Of a DNA stretch of 64,000 bases, positions 2,951-49,491 are shown piece by piece. Made by a program: the position numbers and the translations under genes. The DNA lies in NCBI GenBank assembly GCA_965204495.1, contig OZ241989.1:1504312-1568311 (forward strand), written 5' to 3'. This DNA comes from Candidatus Hopanoidivoransaceae bacterium. GTDB taxonomy: Bacteria; Actinomycetota; Acidimicrobiia; Acidimicrobiales; Hopanoidiivorantaceae. A model generated the notes under the pieces. The model ran no database searches and was not told the DNA's origin. It was given only the letters and a program-made list of their open reading frames with translations. Within the stretch, counting starts at the first letter, position 1. Each line of letters begins with the position of its first letter.

Positions 2951-3667
2951 TTGAGCGAGTCTCTCTTTCTGCTGGCTGCGGCTATTATTCTTGTCGGGGC
3001 GACTATTCAGGGGGTGGCGGGGTTCGGCATGAATGTGCTGGGGGCGCCACTGCTGTTTTTGATTGAACCTTCGCTGGTGCCGGGGTCTATCATTCTGGCG
3101 GCTCTGCTGCATACTGTGCTTTCGGCTTGGCGGGAGCGGGGGGAGATCAACTTTCGGATGGTGTCTTGGATGTTCGCCGGCACGATACCTGGCATTATCG
3201 CAGGGGCTTTGGCGCTCAGGGTTTTGACCGAAAACGGGTCGGCTCTGCTGATCGCCATCGTGATCCTCTCGGCTGTGACGATCATGACTTTCGGGCTGGT
3301 GCCGCCGTTCAACCGAGGCACAACGGCAGCTACAGGGCTGGTGGCCGGATTTTCGGGTTCTACATCTGCAGTCTCGGGGCCGGTGGTGGCTTTGTTCTTG
3401 TCGCAGATGCCGGGGCCGCAGCTGCGCAGCACTATGGCAGCTTATTTTCTGATTTCAGGATCTATCTCTTTGGTGACGCTTTCCCTGGTGGGCGAGTTCG
3501 GCGCGCAGCAGTTCGCCAGAGGCTTGCTGCTCTGGCCGCCCGTAGGCATAGGGTTTTTGCTGTCTTCGCCTCTGCGGAAATACTTGGATCGCGGCTATGT
3601 GCGCCCCGCCATCCTGACGATTTCGTCTTGCGCGGCAATCTCGCTGCTAGTGCGAGCCTTGGTCTAG
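2951..3667 (+). CDS. TSUP (TauE/SafE) family membrane transporter
   Basis: 238 aa polytopic membrane protein. The N-terminus GATIQGVAGFGMNVLGAPLL and a repeated half are typical of TauE/SafE. The start is TTG and is uncertain. Confidence 0.7.
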   Translation: MSESLFLLAAAIILVGATIQGVAGFGMNVLGAPLLFLIEPSLVPGSIILAALLHTVLSAWRERGEINFRMVSWMFAGTIPGIIAGALALRVLTENGSALLIAIVILSAVTIMTFGLVPPFNRGTTAATGLVAGFSGSTSAVSGPVVALFLSQMPGPQLRSTMAAYFLISGSISLVTLSLVGEFGAQQFARGLLLWPPVGIGFLLSSPLRKYLDRGYVRPAILTISSCAAISLLVRALV

Positions 3668-13948: not shown

Positions 13949-14347
13949 TTGATGCTGATGAAATTTCTATCAGAGGAGTGGGTGGGGGAGTTGGATGCCA
14001 AGCTTCGGGAGTCGGATGTGCGGTTGCCGGAAGGGAGCAGGGCAGCTCTTTGCGTTCAGAATATTGCTGAGTTTTCAGATGGCGACGAGCCGCTTTGCTA
14101 TTTCATCCAAGTCGACGCACAGGGCGCGACTGCTGCTTTTGGCAAGGCCGCTGATCCGTCTGTCGTCTTTACCCAGCCTTACGATGTAGCAGTCTCCATT
14201 GCTCAACGACAGAGAGATGCCCATGCTGCGTTTTTGTTGGGCGAGATAAAAGTGGCAGGCGATGTCACCGCCCTTTTGCAGCTAGGCGACATAACCGCAA
14301 AAATCCAAGAGTTGGTGGAATCCCTTCATCGCATCACCGAGTTTTAG
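13949..14347 (+). CDS. SCP2 sterol-carrier-like domain protein
   Basis: 132 aa with N-terminal FLSEEWV and C-terminal GEIKVAGDVTALLQL, characteristic of SCP2 domains. Confidence 0.7.
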   Translation: MMLMKFLSEEWVGELDAKLRESDVRLPEGSRAALCVQNIAEFSDGDEPLCYFIQVDAQGATAAFGKAADPSVVFTQPYDVAVSIAQRQRDAHAAFLLGEIKVAGDVTALLQLGDITAKIQELVESLHRITEF

Positions 14348-28718: not shown

Positions 28719-29489
28719 GTGAGCGACAAAAATCTCTTAGAAAACACCTCAGCCGTTGTCACTGGCGCGGGGGCGGGTGTCGGCAAGGGCATTGCGGATG
28801 CTCTTGCATCGGAAGGGGCGCATGTGGTTGTTGCTGCTCGTCGTGCGGAGAACGGGGAACCCGCAGCCGAGGAGATACGAGCGGCAGGCGGGAGCGCCCA
28901 GTTCGTCCGCTGCGATGTGGCTTCACGAGACGACATCTTCGCAGCCGTGGAAGCGGCAGTGGAGGCGACAGGCCGATTGGACTGTCTTGTCCATAACGCC
29001 CTAGGTGATGTCGGGCCGCCGAGCGCGGTTCAGGAAATCCCTGAGCAGATATGGGAGAACATGCGCACCACTGCCCTGCGAGCTTCTTTTGACTGCGCCC
29101 AAGCCGCCTATCCCCATCTGCTAAAAACGCAGGGTAGCTGCATTTTCTTGTCGTCTTCGGCGGGAGTGGAAGGCAGCGCGCACCTTCCTCTTTATGGGGC
29201 AGTCAAGGCAGCCCAGCGTGGCTTTGCCAAGAGCTTGGCTCTGGAATGGGGAGGCGAAGGCATCCGCGTCAATCTCATCAACCCCGTGGCGTTCACCCCC
29301 GCAATGGAGAGGGCTTACGCGGCCAACCCCGCCCTAGAACAGGCCTTGGCAGACACAACCCCTCTAGGCAGAGTAGGCGACCCCGCAAGCGACATCGGCC
29401 CGGCAGCAGTGTTCTTGGCGAGCGAAATGTCGCGCTACATCACCGGCCAGACGATCACCGTAGACGGCGGAGCCTTCATGGGGCTTTAG
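28719..29489 (+). CDS. SDR family oxidoreductase (FabG-like)
   Basis: VTGAGAGVGKGIA, YGAVKAAQ, ITGQTITVDGG. GTG start. Confidence 0.85.
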   Translation: MSDKNLLENTSAVVTGAGAGVGKGIADALASEGAHVVVAARRAENGEPAAEEIRAAGGSAQFVRCDVASRDDIFAAVEAAVEATGRLDCLVHNALGDVGPPSAVQEIPEQIWENMRTTALRASFDCAQAAYPHLLKTQGSCIFLSSSAGVEGSAHLPLYGAVKAAQRGFAKSLALEWGGEGIRVNLINPVAFTPAMERAYAANPALEQALADTTPLGRVGDPASDIGPAAVFLASEMSRYITGQTITVDGGAFMGL

Positions 29490-29965
29490 CCAGACATCTC
29501 CCGAATAGCTTCTAGGCACTCCGTTGCATGCTCGGAGAGGTCGTGTTCGCCGGCGTCTAGGTCGAAAGTTTTGCGGATGACGCCTTCAGGGTCTATCAAA
29601 TAGGTAATGCGGCGGGGGATGCCGTATTCATGCATCGGCATGTCGGGTGTGCGCTCGGCTTGATACAGCTTTCCGACCGATTTATCGGTGTCTGCTATGA
29701 GCTTGTAGGGGAAAGACTCTGCTTCGGCGAAAGTCTTTTGGTCGTCTACGGTGTCGAATGATGCCCCTACGATGACGGTGTTTGCGTCTGTGATTTCTTG
29801 GGCTCTATCACGGAGCCCTTGACCTTCAACCGTTCAACCAGGGGTTGAAGCCTTCGGATACCACCAGAAGATGATCCAACTGCCACGCAGTCCCTCCAGC
29901 GATACTGTCTCGCCGTCTTGGTCGGAGCATGAAAACCCCGGTGCCGATGTGCCGACTTCAAGCAT
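29486..29965 (-). CDS. bcp: Bcp-type peroxiredoxin with in-frame TGA at the peroxidatic Cys position (putative selenocysteine)
   Basis: ATG 29965 is preceded by AAGGAG. The 159-codon frame is open except for TGA at 29834-29836. WWYPKASTPG[TGA]TVEGQGLRDR parallels E. coli Bcp YFYPKAMTPGCTVQACGLRDN. It is not in the ORF track. Confidence 0.7.
29800..29836 (-). promoter_or_regulatory. candidate bacterial SECIS: UGA plus hairpin GGGCUC-CGUGAUA-GAGCCC
   Basis: A 6-bp G/C stem with a 7-nt loop begins 15 nt after the UGA on the coding strand. Confidence 0.5.
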
Positions 29966-30055
29966 GTTTTTCTCCTTTTGTTATCTCCCCGCGTGCGTCG
30001 CGGCTCACTTGCTATTGTAATGAGTCTGCAACAGGTTTCAAGGCAAAGCTTGGTG

Positions 30056-30240
30056 ATTCCAAGGTAAGGCGGGGGGCGGTGTGTCTTTTTTTGGCGTGTC
30101 TGGTTTAGCGAAAAAGCTTTCTTAGCAAAAGGGTAAGGTTCAGCCAAAAAAAGATGCGCCGTTGCCCGCCGTGCAATAGCAAGAACTATCAAAGAAAAGC
30201 CAAAAAGACACGCCCCCGCCGTGCAATAGCAAAAACCATC
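30056..30240. repeat. composite copy of the dispersed MITE/REP-like repeat
   Basis: ttccaaggtaaggcggggggcggtgtgtcttttt ... aaaaagatgcgccgttgcccgccgtgcaatagca ... aaaaagacacgcccccgccgtgcaatagcaaaaacc. Confidence 0.75.
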
Positions 30241-44306: not shown

Positions 44307-44630
44307 ATGAACATGAGAAGACTGCCAAGTTTGCCTGCAGGCGTTGGTCTGATGGCACCCAGTCTCGCCCCTGTCCAGCAAACGGCTACTCCTGGGCATA
44401 ACCTGCGGAGGGGGGCTGATTGCTCATTAGGAGGGCAGTCTAGAAGTTTCCCTTGCGCCGCGTCGCTGCTTGGGTTTCTGGCGCAATCTGTGGGGGTCTT
44501 GTTTAGAGGGAGGGTTTGCAGTTTTGTTGCGGGGTGTGTTTGGCGACAGGGCAGAGAATCTTTGTCGCTTGCGAGGCGAAGTGATGGGGATATGAGTGTT
44601 TGCCTAAGTTGGCATTTGGAGGTGCTGTAA
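44307..44630 (+). CDS. putative leaderless 107-aa Cys/Arg-rich ORF
   Basis: The ATG lies at leaderless distance from P1, and the stop overlaps the next start (TAATG). The first 22 codons align without gaps to the N-terminus of the 49494-50024 ORF (shared P7, L9, P10, P18, L20, P22). The composition is otherwise unconvincing. Confidence 0.4.
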   Translation: MNMRRLPSLPAGVGLMAPSLAPVQQTATPGHNLRRGADCSLGGQSRSFPCAASLLGFLAQSVGVLFRGRVCSFVAGCVWRQGRESLSLARRSDGDMSVCLSWHLEVL

Positions 44631-46204
44631 TGGAACTTTCGGACATTTTCAGCAGTGAAACTCAGGTATCTTTTGTTTTTCCATTTAAGTTAAGTCTGTC
44701 GTGTGTCATTTTTGAAGGCAAGGACGAGGAAGTCCAATTTGACTATGACAGGTGGAAGAGTCGTGTCATTTGCAAACTTATTTGCCACAAAAATTCTTCG
44801 GATGGCTGTTATTTGTTTTCTTGGGATGAAGTTGCCGAAGATCTTTCGGATTCTTCTAGCTGTGAATTTTTGCCCAACTGTTTTCTGAAAGCCAAAATTG
44901 AGGATTCTGCCAAATTAGGATGGCTTAATGATTGTTTAAGAGATTTCAAATTTAATGGACTTGGCTTAGAAGTAAGTTGTGTTGAGATGAAGCTTTGGGA
45001 GTTCGGCTTCGGCTCAATCAAAATAGTCTCGAAGGTCATTTCGGATTTGTTAGATGGCGAACAAAAATCATTGAGTGAGGTACTCGATGATTTTCAAACT
45101 ATGCTTAATGAAAAATTTTTGAAAATTTTGGAACCCAAAATAGATTACGAAATTATTTGGAGATGCAATTTTCAAAGAAAGGATGATCCAAAAGAAATTA
45201 CAAGTTTTGCGGAGATTGCTCTTAAGCATAAAAAGAAAACTTTTCAACAAAAAAACAAGGATTACACAAAGTATAATTTTGATTTGTTGGAGCCTATATC
45301 CACTGTTCAAAGTAAAATAATAGACGAAAACGATGATAATGTAATTAATATGCAATCCTCGGGTTTGCGTAGAATAGAAACTAAAGATGAAATTGAAGGG
45401 AACTCATTTAAGATTTACATTTCAAATAACAGGAAGTTATTAGTTTCAATTTTTCAACAGAATTCAGAAGAATATGACAAAATTAAATTTAATGAAATTA
45501 TAGAAACAGTTATTGTTCACAAAGAATTTGGTGTATATCTAAATAAAATTGGCCAAACTTATGAACCCTTTTTGTCAACTTATTCTGATAAAATAGCGAA
45601 AGAAAGTATACATAATAGTAAATTGTGGCCTGACTGGCACGCATTTGCTTGGAATGTCTTGCAAGAAAAAAAGGGCTTAGATACAATTTTGACTGAGATA
45701 CAGGAAGTATCAAGAATAAGCATAATAATGTTTAACACTCTTGATAGTCAAGCAAATAGCTATCTGTCATATTCAAATTTGAGTACTCTCAAAATTGCAA
45801 ATAAAATTTTTGACCTGAATAGAATACGTGACAGCAACAATGAATTATTTTCACTCGTTAATAGATATTATGCAAAAATTAGCAATCATAATGAAAAGCT
45901 ATCTTTGTTTGCTGAATCAGTAATTGCATTTTATTTTCCTACATCATTGTCATTCATTGCTTTGATTCTAAGTTTCGCGGCAATTGATGGTGCTTTTGGT
46001 GAAACATTGAGTAATGTCATACGTTCCACTTTCCCATGGAATCTCTCTATATTGCCGGTCATTGCAGTAATTGTATTATCTTTGCTGGTATCATGCGTTG
46101 AGCGTGCTGAAAAGAGAGAAATTGAAAATGCTAGGAAGCCAGGAAGTGTCTTGGAGACACATCAGTTATGGATCGAAATGCTTGAAACTGAGAAAACAAT
46201 GTGA
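44630..46204 (+). CDS. hypothetical membrane-anchored protein (524 aa), AT-rich gene
   Basis: GGAGG lies 7 nt before ATG 44630 (MELSDIF). The large soluble N-terminal region is followed by two C-terminal TM helices (SVIAFYFPTSLSFIALILSFAAI, LSILPVIAVIVLSLLVSCV). Sampled lines are ~30% G+C. Confidence 0.7.
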   Translation: MELSDIFSSETQVSFVFPFKLSLSCVIFEGKDEEVQFDYDRWKSRVICKLICHKNSSDGCYLFSWDEVAEDLSDSSSCEFLPNCFLKAKIEDSAKLGWLNDCLRDFKFNGLGLEVSCVEMKLWEFGFGSIKIVSKVISDLLDGEQKSLSEVLDDFQTMLNEKFLKILEPKIDYEIIWRCNFQRKDDPKEITSFAEIALKHKKKTFQQKNKDYTKYNFDLLEPISTVQSKIIDENDDNVINMQSSGLRRIETKDEIEGNSFKIYISNNRKLLVSIFQQNSEEYDKIKFNEIIETVIVHKEFGVYLNKIGQTYEPFLSTYSDKIAKESIHNSKLWPDWHAFAWNVLQEKKGLDTILTEIQEVSRISIIMFNTLDSQANSYLSYSNLSTLKIANKIFDLNRIRDSNNELFSLVNRYYAKISNHNEKLSLFAESVIAFYFPTSLSFIALILSFAAIDGAFGETLSNVIRSTFPWNLSILPVIAVIVLSLLVSCVERAEKREIENARKPGSVLETHQLWIEMLETEKTM

Positions 46205-46314: not shown

Positions 46315-48234
46315 ATGATTATTAAAACTATAAAATATCTAAACAGCGTCTTAGCTTTAACACTAGTAGTGTTATTATTTGCTGCGGCTTGTTCATCTGG
46401 TGCCTCTGACGGTGCTGATAGCACCCTGCCAGTGGAGTCTGATATGAGCGCGACAACCGCAGACGGAGTTACATCATTTTCAAGAGTCTCGACTCCTACA
46501 ACTGCTGCAGAGAGCAGTGGGGTAGAGGTTTCTGTCGTTGTGCCGTTCACATCAGGTAACGGTTCTGGATATGTGACTGTTTCTGGCGATAGTTCGCCTG
46601 TGGCAGAGTGGTTCGCTAATCAGCCAGGTGAGGTTTCGCTGGATTTGGTTGACGCTGATGTTGCCGATCCTGCCTCTGTGGTTGAGGAGATGATAAGTTT
46701 CTGGTATTTCCAAGATGGCGATAGCGGCGATGTTCCGCCGTCAATCTATGTTTCAGGCGGCGGCGAAATCACCGACAGCCTGGGCACAAGCTATGTCGTA
46801 GAAGGCGAGCTTTTGCCGCCAGCACCGGTCGCGGAAGCTGCAACTACTACGACCAGCACGACTACCACTTCTACTGCACCAGCGACTACTGCTACAACCT
46901 CAACGACTACTTCCGGTGCGTCAACTGAACAATCTGAGCCGCCAAGTACAACAACTTCGACTGAGCCAGCAATAACCACAACAACTACTACTGTTGTGGA
47001 GTCGCCGGTGACATTGCAGGTTCAAGTATTAAATGGCAGCGGTGTGGCTGGAGCAGCCGGTCGGCTTACTGCTAAGCTTGCCGAAGCTGGCTATACCGTT
47101 TTGCCGGCAGGTAACGCACCTGAAAGATACGCCACTTCTGCCGTCTACTATCAGGATGGCTGGCAGGACAGAGCCGAGGAGATACTGGCAGCATCTGAAC
47201 TAGAAGAGATAGATCAGGTTTCTGCTATGCCGCAACAGTTCGTATCGCCAGACGCTGCTGTTGTTGTGCTTATCGGCAGAGACACCGCTCCTGTTGCAGT
47301 TAGGAGCAGCGGGCCTGCGCCGATTACAAGGTATCGGCTAGGACCAGAAGATGTTCCGATTAATGTGCCGAAAGATAGGTTCGATCCAAGAGCTTTTGGC
47401 GCATCGCTTCCTGTGAATGTGCGTGACCGACCGGAAGATGTGGCAAGGTCAAGCAATTTACTCAAAAGAGCCGCTTATTGTTTCGAGGATGAGATTGCGT
47501 ATTTTGAGGACAACTGCTTGGAAAACGATCTGCCAGCAATCTGGGCCGAGATAGAGCAGATATTTGACAGGCTCGGTTTTACTTCTAAGAACGTTTGCGG
47601 CTCTGTAGCTGACGGCAGCTTCACAGACGGCATAGTGCACACAGCAGAATGGAACCCAGCAACCGGAAACTACAGCGGCGACCTGATTTTCACAACAGAC
47701 AGGTTTATAGAAATAAACCGCCAAGCAGGAATAGATGTGCAGCGGATAAACCCGCAAGCGAACCTAGATTTCTATCTCAGAAAAGCCGCGCAATCAGCAC
47801 ACGACAGACTCAGATTCCAAGAAATCATGAAAGAAACAAGTGCCAGTCATCTCATACTATGCGCATCATGGGTAACAGAATCAGGGTCTATGCCATGGGC
47901 AGCCTACTCAGTAGCGAACACATTCGCCGCTCCGGTAAGAGAATTTTTATCACAAGGCACATACCACATCAAAGAAATATCCAGGAACGGAAACCTCGCC
48001 CATGTTATTGTGTGCCATCCGACAATAAGAGAACGCCATATTCTCTTGCACTGGCACCAAACTGGATATCGCGCAATACAGCTAGCATACAGCACTCATA
48101 CTGGCTGCCAAGGAACTTTCGACGGCGAAACATCAATCTCAGAAGACACGAACAGAGCGGAAGACACCATCAGATACACCTTCGGCCAGCAAGTCTTCGC
48201 CGCCGCCGACCTGCAGGGGTTTCCTAGAGCCTGA
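46315..48234 (+). CDS. secreted/lipoprotein with T-rich linker, LytR_C domain and unknown C-terminal domain
   Basis: Signal LALTLVVLLFAAACSSG, then a TTTTSTTTTSTAPATTATTSTTT linker. VTLQVQVLNGSGVAGAAGRLTAKLAEAGYTV matches the LytR_C pattern. The last ~300 aa are unassigned. Confidence 0.7.
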   Translation: MIIKTIKYLNSVLALTLVVLLFAAACSSGASDGADSTLPVESDMSATTADGVTSFSRVSTPTTAAESSGVEVSVVVPFTSGNGSGYVTVSGDSSPVAEWFANQPGEVSLDLVDADVADPASVVEEMISFWYFQDGDSGDVPPSIYVSGGGEITDSLGTSYVVEGELLPPAPVAEAATTTTSTTTTSTAPATTATTSTTTSGASTEQSEPPSTTTSTEPAITTTTTTVVESPVTLQVQVLNGSGVAGAAGRLTAKLAEAGYTVLPAGNAPERYATSAVYYQDGWQDRAEEILAASELEEIDQVSAMPQQFVSPDAAVVVLIGRDTAPVAVRSSGPAPITRYRLGPEDVPINVPKDRFDPRAFGASLPVNVRDRPEDVARSSNLLKRAAYCFEDEIAYFEDNCLENDLPAIWAEIEQIFDRLGFTSKNVCGSVADGSFTDGIVHTAEWNPATGNYSGDLIFTTDRFIEINRQAGIDVQRINPQANLDFYLRKAAQSAHDRLRFQEIMKETSASHLILCASWVTESGSMPWAAYSVANTFAAPVREFLSQGTYHIKEISRNGNLAHVIVCHPTIRERHILLHWHQTGYRAIQLAYSTHTGCQGTFDGETSISEDTNRAEDTIRYTFGQQVFAAADLQGFPRA

Positions 48235-48259: not shown

Positions 48260-49039
48260 TTAGCTTGACAAGACACTTATAAATTGGTCAGGGTTAGACC
48301 ATAAAGACACCACAGAAAGATCTTCAACGAGATTAAAGTCTTCAGGTTTCCAAATATCCGTGTTGTCATCAAATAGTGAAATAAACTGCTGCTTAGACTC
48401 TCCGTTGGCTAAGTGGCGAATATCATACCACCCAGCTATTGTATGTTCTACAATCCTTCGAGTAGCTGCAGTGCTTTCGGTTGCTAAAATCTGAATAAGA
48501 GATTTTTGTGATTCTGTATTAACGCTAAAGTCCACATTCCAAAACTTGCCAGATTTCCCCTCAATATTTTTTGACCGGGAAAAATTAATCTTTTTCTCAT
48601 CCATGAAATCAGCAACTTCGTCAGAAATCGAAGAAACAGCTCTTGTTCTGAAAGTGAACCAAAGATCTGAGATTCGTATAGATGCATGAGCAACTTTTGT
48701 AATGGTTTCAGCCAACGAATCTCCTGAGCGACAGCGAGCCAAAAGCATTTCTCGATAGAACTCTACGCCATGAGTGACGCAAGTATCTTGAATTAGGTAA
48801 TTCTGCTTATAGGAACGCCGCTGTGACAAAGAATGCATAGACAGCCAATTTGTTGTTTCGGCGAAATCTGTCACTATCAGCTCATCTCCGTTTTCCGTGG
48901 GCTTACAGAAAATGTCAATGACTTCCCCATCAGGGTAAAGGTAAGGTGTGCGAACACGAAACCGCCCATTTTGTTCAGTGACGGCGAATTGTTGTCCCAA
49001 ATCGGCCAACAGCGTCTCGAAGCGTTTGCTGAGGTTCAT
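48260..49039 (-). CDS. DUF1828/DUF1829-like protein (259 aa)
   Basis: FRVRTPYLYPDGEVIDIFCKPTENGDELIVTDFAETTNWL fits the DUF1828 pattern. The later GKSGKFWNVDFSV segment fits DUF1829. The start ATG overlaps the upstream stop (ATGA). Confidence 0.6.
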   Translation of the reverse strand: MNLSKRFETLLADLGQQFAVTEQNGRFRVRTPYLYPDGEVIDIFCKPTENGDELIVTDFAETTNWLSMHSLSQRRSYKQNYLIQDTCVTHGVEFYREMLLARCRSGDSLAETITKVAHASIRISDLWFTFRTRAVSSISDEVADFMDEKKINFSRSKNIEGKSGKFWNVDFSVNTESQKSLIQILATESTAATRRIVEHTIAGWYDIRHLANGESKQQFISLFDDNTDIWKPEDFNLVEDLSVVSLWSNPDQFISVLSS

Positions 49040-49491
49040 ATGAATAACTCCTCTTGTCGTGGTAATGGTGGTCCTAGTATACCTGTATGTGTTATATTGG
49101 CCAATTCGCAAAATTGTTGCCACACGGCAACAGGGTTGGAAATTTCAGCCGTGATCTCTTCAGGAACACGAGCTACTTTGTCTCTGAATTCTTCGGTCCA
49201 TTCGTGGAGGTGTGTTTCTCCTACCATATTGCAATGAGGATTGTGGTGCTCTTTGCCTAAGTCAACCCCAAATATGCGTCCATGTTTTTTATGAACAATA
49301 AGGTAGTTGAGTTTGCTAACGTCGGGATTGAAAGTAGCATGGAGAAACAGAGGCCATTCTGACACTATATCGACACGGAATTCGCTTACGGAACGATTAT
49401 TCTCCCTTCTGCCCCACTCAATGTTCCCATTGATGTATTTTGGCTCTCTAATGATTGAGCCGAATTCATGCTTGGATAACTGGGCAGTCAT
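49036..49491 (-). CDS. hypothetical protein (151 aa), His-rich motif GKEHHNPHCNMVGETHLHEW
   Basis: Tightly coupled to both neighbours (2-nt gap upstream, 4-nt overlap downstream). AT-rich. Confidence 0.6.
   Translation of the reverse strand: MTAQLSKHEFGSIIREPKYINGNIEWGRRENNRSVSEFRVDIVSEWPLFLHATFNPDVSKLNYLIVHKKHGRIFGVDLGKEHHNPHCNMVGETHLHEWTEEFRDKVARVPEEITAEISNPVAVWQQFCELANITHTGILGPPLPRQEELFI

Follow-up and report, generated by a model that had tools for sequence, protein, structure and literature searches.

The 64-kb window analysed here (contig OZ241989.1 of assembly GCA_965204495.1, positions 1,504,312 to 1,568,311, from a Candidatus Hopanoidivoransaceae bacterium) carries on its minus strand a gene for a peroxiredoxin (Prx) of the Bcp/PrxQ type, in which an in-frame UGA occupies the codon of the peroxidatic cysteine and a hairpin resembling a bacterial selenocysteine insertion sequence (SECIS) follows shortly downstream. 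Translation of the interval gives 159 sense codons and a terminal TAA, with codon 44 as the sole internal stop. A first-pass annotation of this DNA had proposed the same frame, with its ATG at 29965, its TAA ending at 29486, and a single TGA in between; retranslation agrees with it, and all of its coordinates are right. The Shine-Dalgarno sequence it had placed 6 nt 5' of the ATG was likewise confirmed, and AAGGAG is also found at the equivalent place in the two closest relatives (L001 and L002), both of which are selenocysteine (Sec) forms. The statement that open reading frame (ORF) callers miss the gene and list a 141-aa ORF in its stead also held; that ORF lies in a different frame and has a low third-position GC content (GC3) of 0.50. 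Feature coordinates are collected in Table 1.

Profile matches were scored with Cys placed at codon 44. The protein matches the Pfam family PF00578 (AhpC-TSA) over residues 4-132 (model positions 1-123/124) with an E value of 6.5e-31 and 107.3 bits against a gathering cut-off of 26, and PDB chains of Bcp/PrxQ proteins match it at E=1e-20. The best NCBIfam match is the thioredoxin-dependent thiol peroxidase NF006960, at 99.7 bits, short of the 140 bits set as the threshold for E. coli Bcp equivalogs; by these scores the window protein is assigned to Bcp/PrxQ at the subfamily level and, under the NCBI threshold, not to the equivalog. The active-site loop, P37-K-A-S-T41-P-G-U44-T, fits the pattern P-x-x-x-T-x-x-C(U), and codon 44 aligns to the Cys in YPKDNTPGCT of 5ENU, to the Ser in YPKDDTPGST of 3DRN, and to the TPGC Cys of full-length Cys homologues with 52-61% identity (P0001-P0004, P0006, and P0007), which bears out the original placement of the TGA on the catalytic Cys of the TPGC motif. 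In a 19-sequence alignment, R119 is invariant and R118 is conserved in at least 90% of sequences; we take these residues to supply the catalytic Arg, from what is known of the family. E. coli Bcp has Cys50 at the +5 position. The window protein has Gly there, and neither its C13 nor its C150 is kept in orthologues, which leaves no conserved resolving Cys.

Table 1. Features of the Bcp/PrxQ-type locus (coordinates are positions in the window)
Feature	Coordinates	Strand	Remarks
Bcp/PrxQ-type peroxiredoxin CDS, predicted Sec at residue 44	29486..29965	-	159 codons; from translation
Stop codon TAA	29488-29486	-	
In-frame UGA, codon 44	29834..29836	-	Peroxidatic position; predicted to be read as selenocysteine
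Spacer from UGA to hairpin	29833-29819	-	15 nt
SECIS-type hairpin GGGCUC-CGUGAUA-GAGCCC	29800..29818	-	6-bp stem, 7-nt loop; in the minimum-free-energy fold
Hairpin 5' arm, GGGCUC	29818-29813	-	
Hairpin loop, CGUGAUA	29812-29806	-	
Hairpin 3' arm, GAGCCC	29805-29800	-	
Shine-Dalgarno AAGGAG	29972..29977	-	6 nt 5' of ATG 29965; read from sequence
Sigma-70-like promoter match, TTGAAA-16 nt-TACAAT	30014..30041	-	About 50 nt 5' of the start codon; consensus match only
141-aa ORF	29767-30192	-	Different frame from the CDS
Convergent SDR gene	28719-29489	+	

The UGA codon was then followed across orthologues with a scan in which each GTDB species was represented by a single genome and searched for two peptide patterns 3' of codon 44; because both patterns lie downstream of that codon, the scan is blind to its identity. 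It gave 80 species-level loci, nearly all from Acidimicrobiia metagenome-assembled genomes (MAGs), among them Ca. Hopanoidivorans cymbastelae and closed Ca. Poriferisocius and Ca. Aldehydirespirator chromosomes, and a few from MAGs labelled Myxococcota or Acidobacteriota. Complete chromosomes with the TGA form include OZ241903.1, OZ242020.1, NZ_OZ241836.1, and NZ_OZ241965.1. Codon 44 is TGA in 79 of the 80 loci, as it is in the window, and TGC in the remaining one (L009) and in five further Cys forms, the two codons alternating in this column among orthologues. A start codon has been retained (76 loci with ATG, 3 with GTG), and the orthologous ORFs are otherwise intact at 51-75% amino acid identity, so that a look for decay among close relatives turned up no frameshift or further stop except in L043 (JBFJYB010000036.1, ~1242-1244), where a second in-frame TGA falls on the conserved Trp30 codon (GK*VAFWW). 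This single case may stem from misassembly or from a copy in decay. Over 575 pairs, codons 2-43 have a ratio of nonsynonymous to synonymous substitution rates (dN/dS) of 0.15 and codons 45-100 one of 0.22, indicating that both halves of the gene are translated in frame and under purifying selection.

These observations bear on the simpler accounts of the stop codon. A sequencing or assembly error for TGC has in its favor a difference of one base and nothing more, and it is refuted by the recurrence of the same codon in 80 independent assemblies built from short as well as long reads. Inactivation of a bcp gene by a nonsense mutation at its catalytic codon would agree with the one in-frame stop and with gene callers returning only fragments, yet the same TGA is shared by 79 of the 80 species-level genomes in diverged and intact ORFs, dN/dS stays far below 1 to either side of it, and a pseudogene would not retain the hairpin with the frozen synonymous sites described below; because the divergence also excludes recent copies, we regard the pseudogene reading as refuted and next to nothing in probability. 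The earlier argument against an old pseudogene, from the intact codons after the TGA, is in line with the downstream dN/dS and the intact relatives. Reassignment of TGA to a sense codon was also rejected, since TGA is an ordinary stop that terminates 13 of the 35 confident genes of the window.

In public annotation, the protein appears mostly in pieces. A protein search returned many fragments of the C-terminal part, 92-95 aa or 113 aa long, from NCBI, ENA, JGI, and Logan assemblies (P0005, P0015-P0019, P0042, P0046, P0049, P0067, P0080, P0083, P0105, and P0108), one of which (P0108) sits on the 3.54-Mb chromosome OZ241903.1. Such fragments begin just past the active site, as would be expected of gene callers that stop at a Sec codon, and they are a systematic misannotation of the selenoprotein. 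One ENA entry of 121 aa (P0022) has Trp at the Sec position (TPGWT); its depositor's gene caller evidently used a code in which TGA is Trp. Taken at face value, the database entries would correspond to two products, a peptide of 43 residues up to the UGA and a protein without its N-terminal part, with callers placing starts at about codon 64-66 or at codon 46 in many assemblies. Those starts vary between orthologues (M or V) and are missing from the window, where codons 64-66 are GTC ATC GTA; moreover, the downstream fragment would lack both the entire active-site loop and the opening beta-strands of the thioredoxin fold, and codons 45-65 are conserved in frame. Given the inconsistent starts and this in-frame conservation, the split gene was rejected as very improbable.

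The hairpin was compared in an alignment (A2) of 80 UGA-form sequences, 70 of them distinct. A 7-bp helix between columns 24-30 and 38-44 is paired in 94.9% of cells over the 70 distinct sequences; 0 of 500 column shuffles reached either its paired fraction or its covariation score, and every slid register was far worse. In 18 distinct sequences the pair at columns 27/41 is A-U instead of G-C, a swap in which a synonymous change of the Gly codon (GGG to GGA) goes together with replacement of Ala by Ile, and columns 28/40 are seen as C-G, U-G, and U-A. Within codons 50-55 the synonymous sites are frozen, whereas neighboring codons have 1-2 bits of synonymous entropy. F51 is TTC in 73 of 73 UGA forms (compared with 36 TTC and 34 TTT at F58), R52 is CGT in 79 of 79 (a triplet that accounts for just 9% of the window's Arg codons), R54 is only CGA or AGA, and A55 is GCC in 38 of 40. 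The 7-nt loop has the consensus CGUGAYN with G32, U33, and G34 invariant, and the stem has 6 bp in the window and 7 bp in most relatives. According to the published rule, a bacterial SECIS has a stem of 6-8 bp and, about 20 nt past the UGA, a conserved G in its loop (PMC4605307); the window hairpin fits it, with the loop G at +23. No Rfam family, bacterial SECIS models included, matched the window. In three MAG loci labelled Myxococcota/Deltaproteobacteria (L004, L055, and L059; 3130-3175), the UGA is kept and the hairpin is shifted, with the form GGUCACGG-GUU-CCGUGAUC; CCGUGAU, the loop in Acidimicrobiia, is the 3' arm there. This arrangement could represent SECIS remodelling after an inter-phylum transfer.

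The six Cys-form DNAs (L009 and the five further ones) provide the counterpart. Three of them (L082, L083, and L009) have at least the adjacent SDR gene beside bcp, as in the window, and because the neighboring genes match, Sec and Cys alternate at loci of common neighborhood. The Cys forms encode nearly the same residues (G-F/L-R-D) with other synonymous codons; four of the six have no hairpin, a forced 7-bp helix costing +1.8 to +10.4 kcal/mol, and L084 has a weak one. The 28-nt segment has a mean of -10.2 kcal/mol in the 80 Sec forms and ranges from -1.0 to -7.9 kcal/mol in the six Cys forms, and the forced helix is favorable in 77/80 of the former versus 1/6 of the latter, so that the hairpin does go with the TGA. 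These alignments indicate that the hairpin is under selection at the RNA level and is associated with UGA over UGC, the Cys sample being small. At the SECIS position of one Cys form (L085; CAZCYE010000008.1, ~3145-3165) there is a hairpin, GGCGU-ACCGUG-ACGCC, of -7.9 kcal/mol, perhaps left over from an ancestor with Sec.

Apart from codon 44, no comparable case emerged. A scan for TGA-joined ORFs across all loci found bcp to be the only recurrent family, other clusters being off-frame or gene ends. The sole TGA-joined candidate in the window by coding-like GC3 (13970-14281, minus strand) was rejected as the antisense of a real plus-strand ORF.

Components of Sec decoding were sought near the gene and beyond it. 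ARAGORN predicted no tRNA in the 64-kb window and no tRNA-Sec in the orthologous loci scanned; an odd 102-nt 'tRNA-Trp (cca)' that it reported just 5' of bcp in L051 (2696-2797, minus strand) is probably a false positive. Neither SelA, SelB, nor SelD was found among the 40 window ORFs with Pfam and NCBIfam, and E. coli SelA, SelB, and SelD searched by tblastn against the orthologous loci matched only a BipA GTPase. Protein searches from an actinobacterial SelA seed, taken from the selD-selA-selB set of an Arthrobacter plasmid, returned SelA from other taxa only, namely, Micrococcaceae, Streptomyces, Gemmatimonadota, Myxococcota, Chloroflexota, and unclassified Actinomycetota. On that conjugative plasmid (L088, 3460-7791) selD-selA-selB stand beside formate dehydrogenase and a Tn3 transposase, so that in Actinomycetota the Sec trait is carried by a plasmid and may be mobile; the three genes are also clustered in an uncultured soil MAG (L093, 3965-8137; ERZ25039476 contig_4799). 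Indirect support comes from published genomes. SelA and SelB co-occur in most symbiont bins of Aplysina sponges, where they are enriched (PMC5649159); the Acidimicrobiia bin76 has SelA=2, SelB=1, and SelD=1 (Slaby et al. 2017, Table S4; PMC5649159), and a 2026 preprint reports selA, selB, selC, and selD in all 84 complete genomes of Actinomarina, a member of the same class.

On this evidence the locus in all likelihood encodes a genuine Sec-Bcp, in which the peroxidatic Cys is replaced by selenocysteine at position 44; several results nevertheless weigh against that reading. The window hairpin alone is not beyond chance: its 76-nt fold has a z score of -0.07 against shuffles, and 21% of synonymous recodings of codons 45-60 drawn from the window codon usage fold equally well or better. 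The significance of the hairpin comes, for that reason, from the orthologue comparison only; of the SECIS-like hairpin as first described, its position 15 nt after the UGA stood and its conservation in orthologues was found. RNAalifold with default settings gave no structure on all 80 sequences; to find the hairpin it needs RIBOSUM scoring, softer penalties, or a subset of no more than 40 sequences, and since its outcome depends on scoring settings, the explicit pair counts were relied upon. The comparison of hairpin and codon spans only six Cys DNAs, one of which (L085) has a hairpin at the equivalent place. selA, selB, selD, and tRNA-Sec are absent from the window and from about 590 kb of orthologous loci; as the window covers 64 kb of a genome of 3-4 Mb, this is no surprise and not evidence of absence. 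The MAG of L011, bin134, is 90% complete and was scored with SelD=1, SelA=0, and SelB=0 (Slaby et al. 2017, Table S4; PMC5649159). Finally, it is from sequence comparison that we infer Sec, rather than another residue, at position 44.

One alternative is that UGA-44 is read through without a Sec system, by near-cognate tRNA-Trp or tRNA-Cys or by a suppressor tRNA, with the hairpin as a stimulator and Cys, Trp, or another residue inserted. Such an account agrees with the missing machinery in the window and orthologous loci and with bin134, which was scored without SelA and SelB, and the conserved hairpin, while it proves RNA-level selection, leaves the binding partner unspecified. However, the UGA falls exactly on the residue where Sec is a known replacement, with hundreds of documented Sec forms; Trp or Gly at position 44 would abolish catalysis, yet purifying selection acts on the gene; and the hairpin matches SECIS geometry with an invariant loop G-U. 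Other Acidimicrobiia do have Sec genes, as bin76 and Actinomarina illustrate, and bin134 itself has SelD. The selenouridine trait has been reported absent in all sequenced Actinobacteria (PMC1794560), and for this reason SelD in bin134 points to Sec use. Read-through without Sec is thus judged unlikely. The bin134 result still fits uncomfortably, and a small probability was therefore kept for noncanonical decoding. A further reading, that Sec-Bcp is almost fixed across marine and sponge Acidimicrobiia with its own compact SECIS and that some lineages (such as the bin134/Ca. Poriferisocius group, with motif T-K-G-U and scored SelA-/SelB-/SelD+) use a divergent or noncanonical route of Sec insertion, is in our estimate improbable.

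For the Sec-Bcp reading, the following mechanism is proposed. When the ribosome reaches UGA-44, the hairpin 15 nt 3' of it would act as a bacterial SECIS, and SelB-GTP-Sec-tRNA(Sec) would bind the loop and deliver Sec to the UGA in competition with RF2, after which translation would run on to the TAA at 29486. The selenolate, positioned by Thr41 and the conserved Arg (R118/R119), would attack the peroxide and yield a selenenic acid, as in the family at large. Because the resolving Cys is not conserved, recycling would probably depend on an external thiol reductant such as thioredoxin, as in 1-Cys-type Bcp, and the product would be a 1-Sec Bcp/PrxQ peroxidase of about 17.5 kDa. SelB as the binding partner of the hairpin, the reductant, and the substrate are what we infer from these likenesses.

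Peroxiredoxins with a TxxU motif (COG1225/pfam00578) are among the most abundant marine selenoprotein families, with 43 genes in the Sargasso Sea data and 253 in the Global Ocean Sampling (GOS) data (PMC1088965, PMC2398784), and the view that the family is not new was well founded. By 2006, Sec-Prx was known from 12 complete genomes, and several Cys-to-Sec conversions had been inferred (PMC1794560). The window gene shares with the marine Sec-Prx the AhpC-TSA domain, the Bcp-type COG, Sec on the peroxidatic Cys via T-x-x-U, a SECIS-like hairpin right after the UGA, the marine habitat, and widespread Cys homologues; this likeness to the Sargasso and GOS proteins rests on family features, not on direct sequence comparison. 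It fits that family in every feature examined and is neither a new mechanism nor a new family. Whereas the marine reports are read-level and without taxonomy, the window gene has a defined context between pepA and SDR genes and is nearly fixed in 79 species-level genomes with a lineage-specific SECIS.

Among individual proteins, E. coli Bcp and PrxQ (NF006960; 3DRN, 5ENU, and 3GKK) resemble the window protein in fold, in the YPKxxTPG[C/U]T loop, in the conserved Arg, and in a length of about 155-160 residues, and differ from it in that the window protein has a predicted Sec for Cys and Gly at +5. The sole Sec-peroxiredoxin cited as experimentally characterized is PrxU of Eubacterium acidaminophilum (Sohling et al. 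2001; PMC13188914), in whose PxxxTxxU motif the peroxidatic residue is likewise Sec. PrxU (NF040737, a 233-position model) represents another Prx subfamily, and at 36.6 bits against a cut-off of 270 the window protein does not score as a member of it. As to the RNA element, the SECIS of the E. coli fdhF type is also a hairpin within the coding sequence directly after the UGA, with a 6-7 bp stem and an apical-loop G about 20 nt on; the window hairpin differs in its unrelated sequence, its 7-nt CGUGAYN loop, and the want of an Rfam match.

The gene order ATPase, small ORF, pepA, bcp, SDR, SDR, enoyl-CoA hydratase is alike in the window, L001, and L002. The stop of bcp shares 4 nt (29486-29489) with the stop of the convergent SDR gene, and there is therefore no space for a terminator between them. 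Upstream, the promoter-like site matches 10 of 12 consensus positions, and with one such site found against 0.5 expected it is weak evidence. Elsewhere in the window, the segment 44001-50000 has a GC content of 0.39-0.48, compared with 0.58-0.62 in the remainder, and looks like a horizontally acquired island; its ORFs at 44600-46204, 46315-48234 (with a LytR_C domain), and 48260-49123 have GC3 values of 0.30-0.45, and the first two have no NCBIfam match.

The Sec-Bcp call would imply selenocysteine decoding in this lineage, as the first-pass annotation had foreseen, which agrees with the report that sponge symbionts are enriched in SelA and SelB (PMC5649159). It would also give a taxonomic anchor to a selenoprotein family, with Sec-Bcp nearly universal in 79 species-level genomes, mostly of marine and sponge Acidimicrobiia, and the deep alignment of a lineage-specific bacterial SECIS could be used to train selenoprotein predictors. 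As many Acidimicrobiia genomes are publicly annotated without the gene or with a truncated version of it, the set of peroxide-defence genes counted for these abundant marine bacteria and sponge symbionts is too small.

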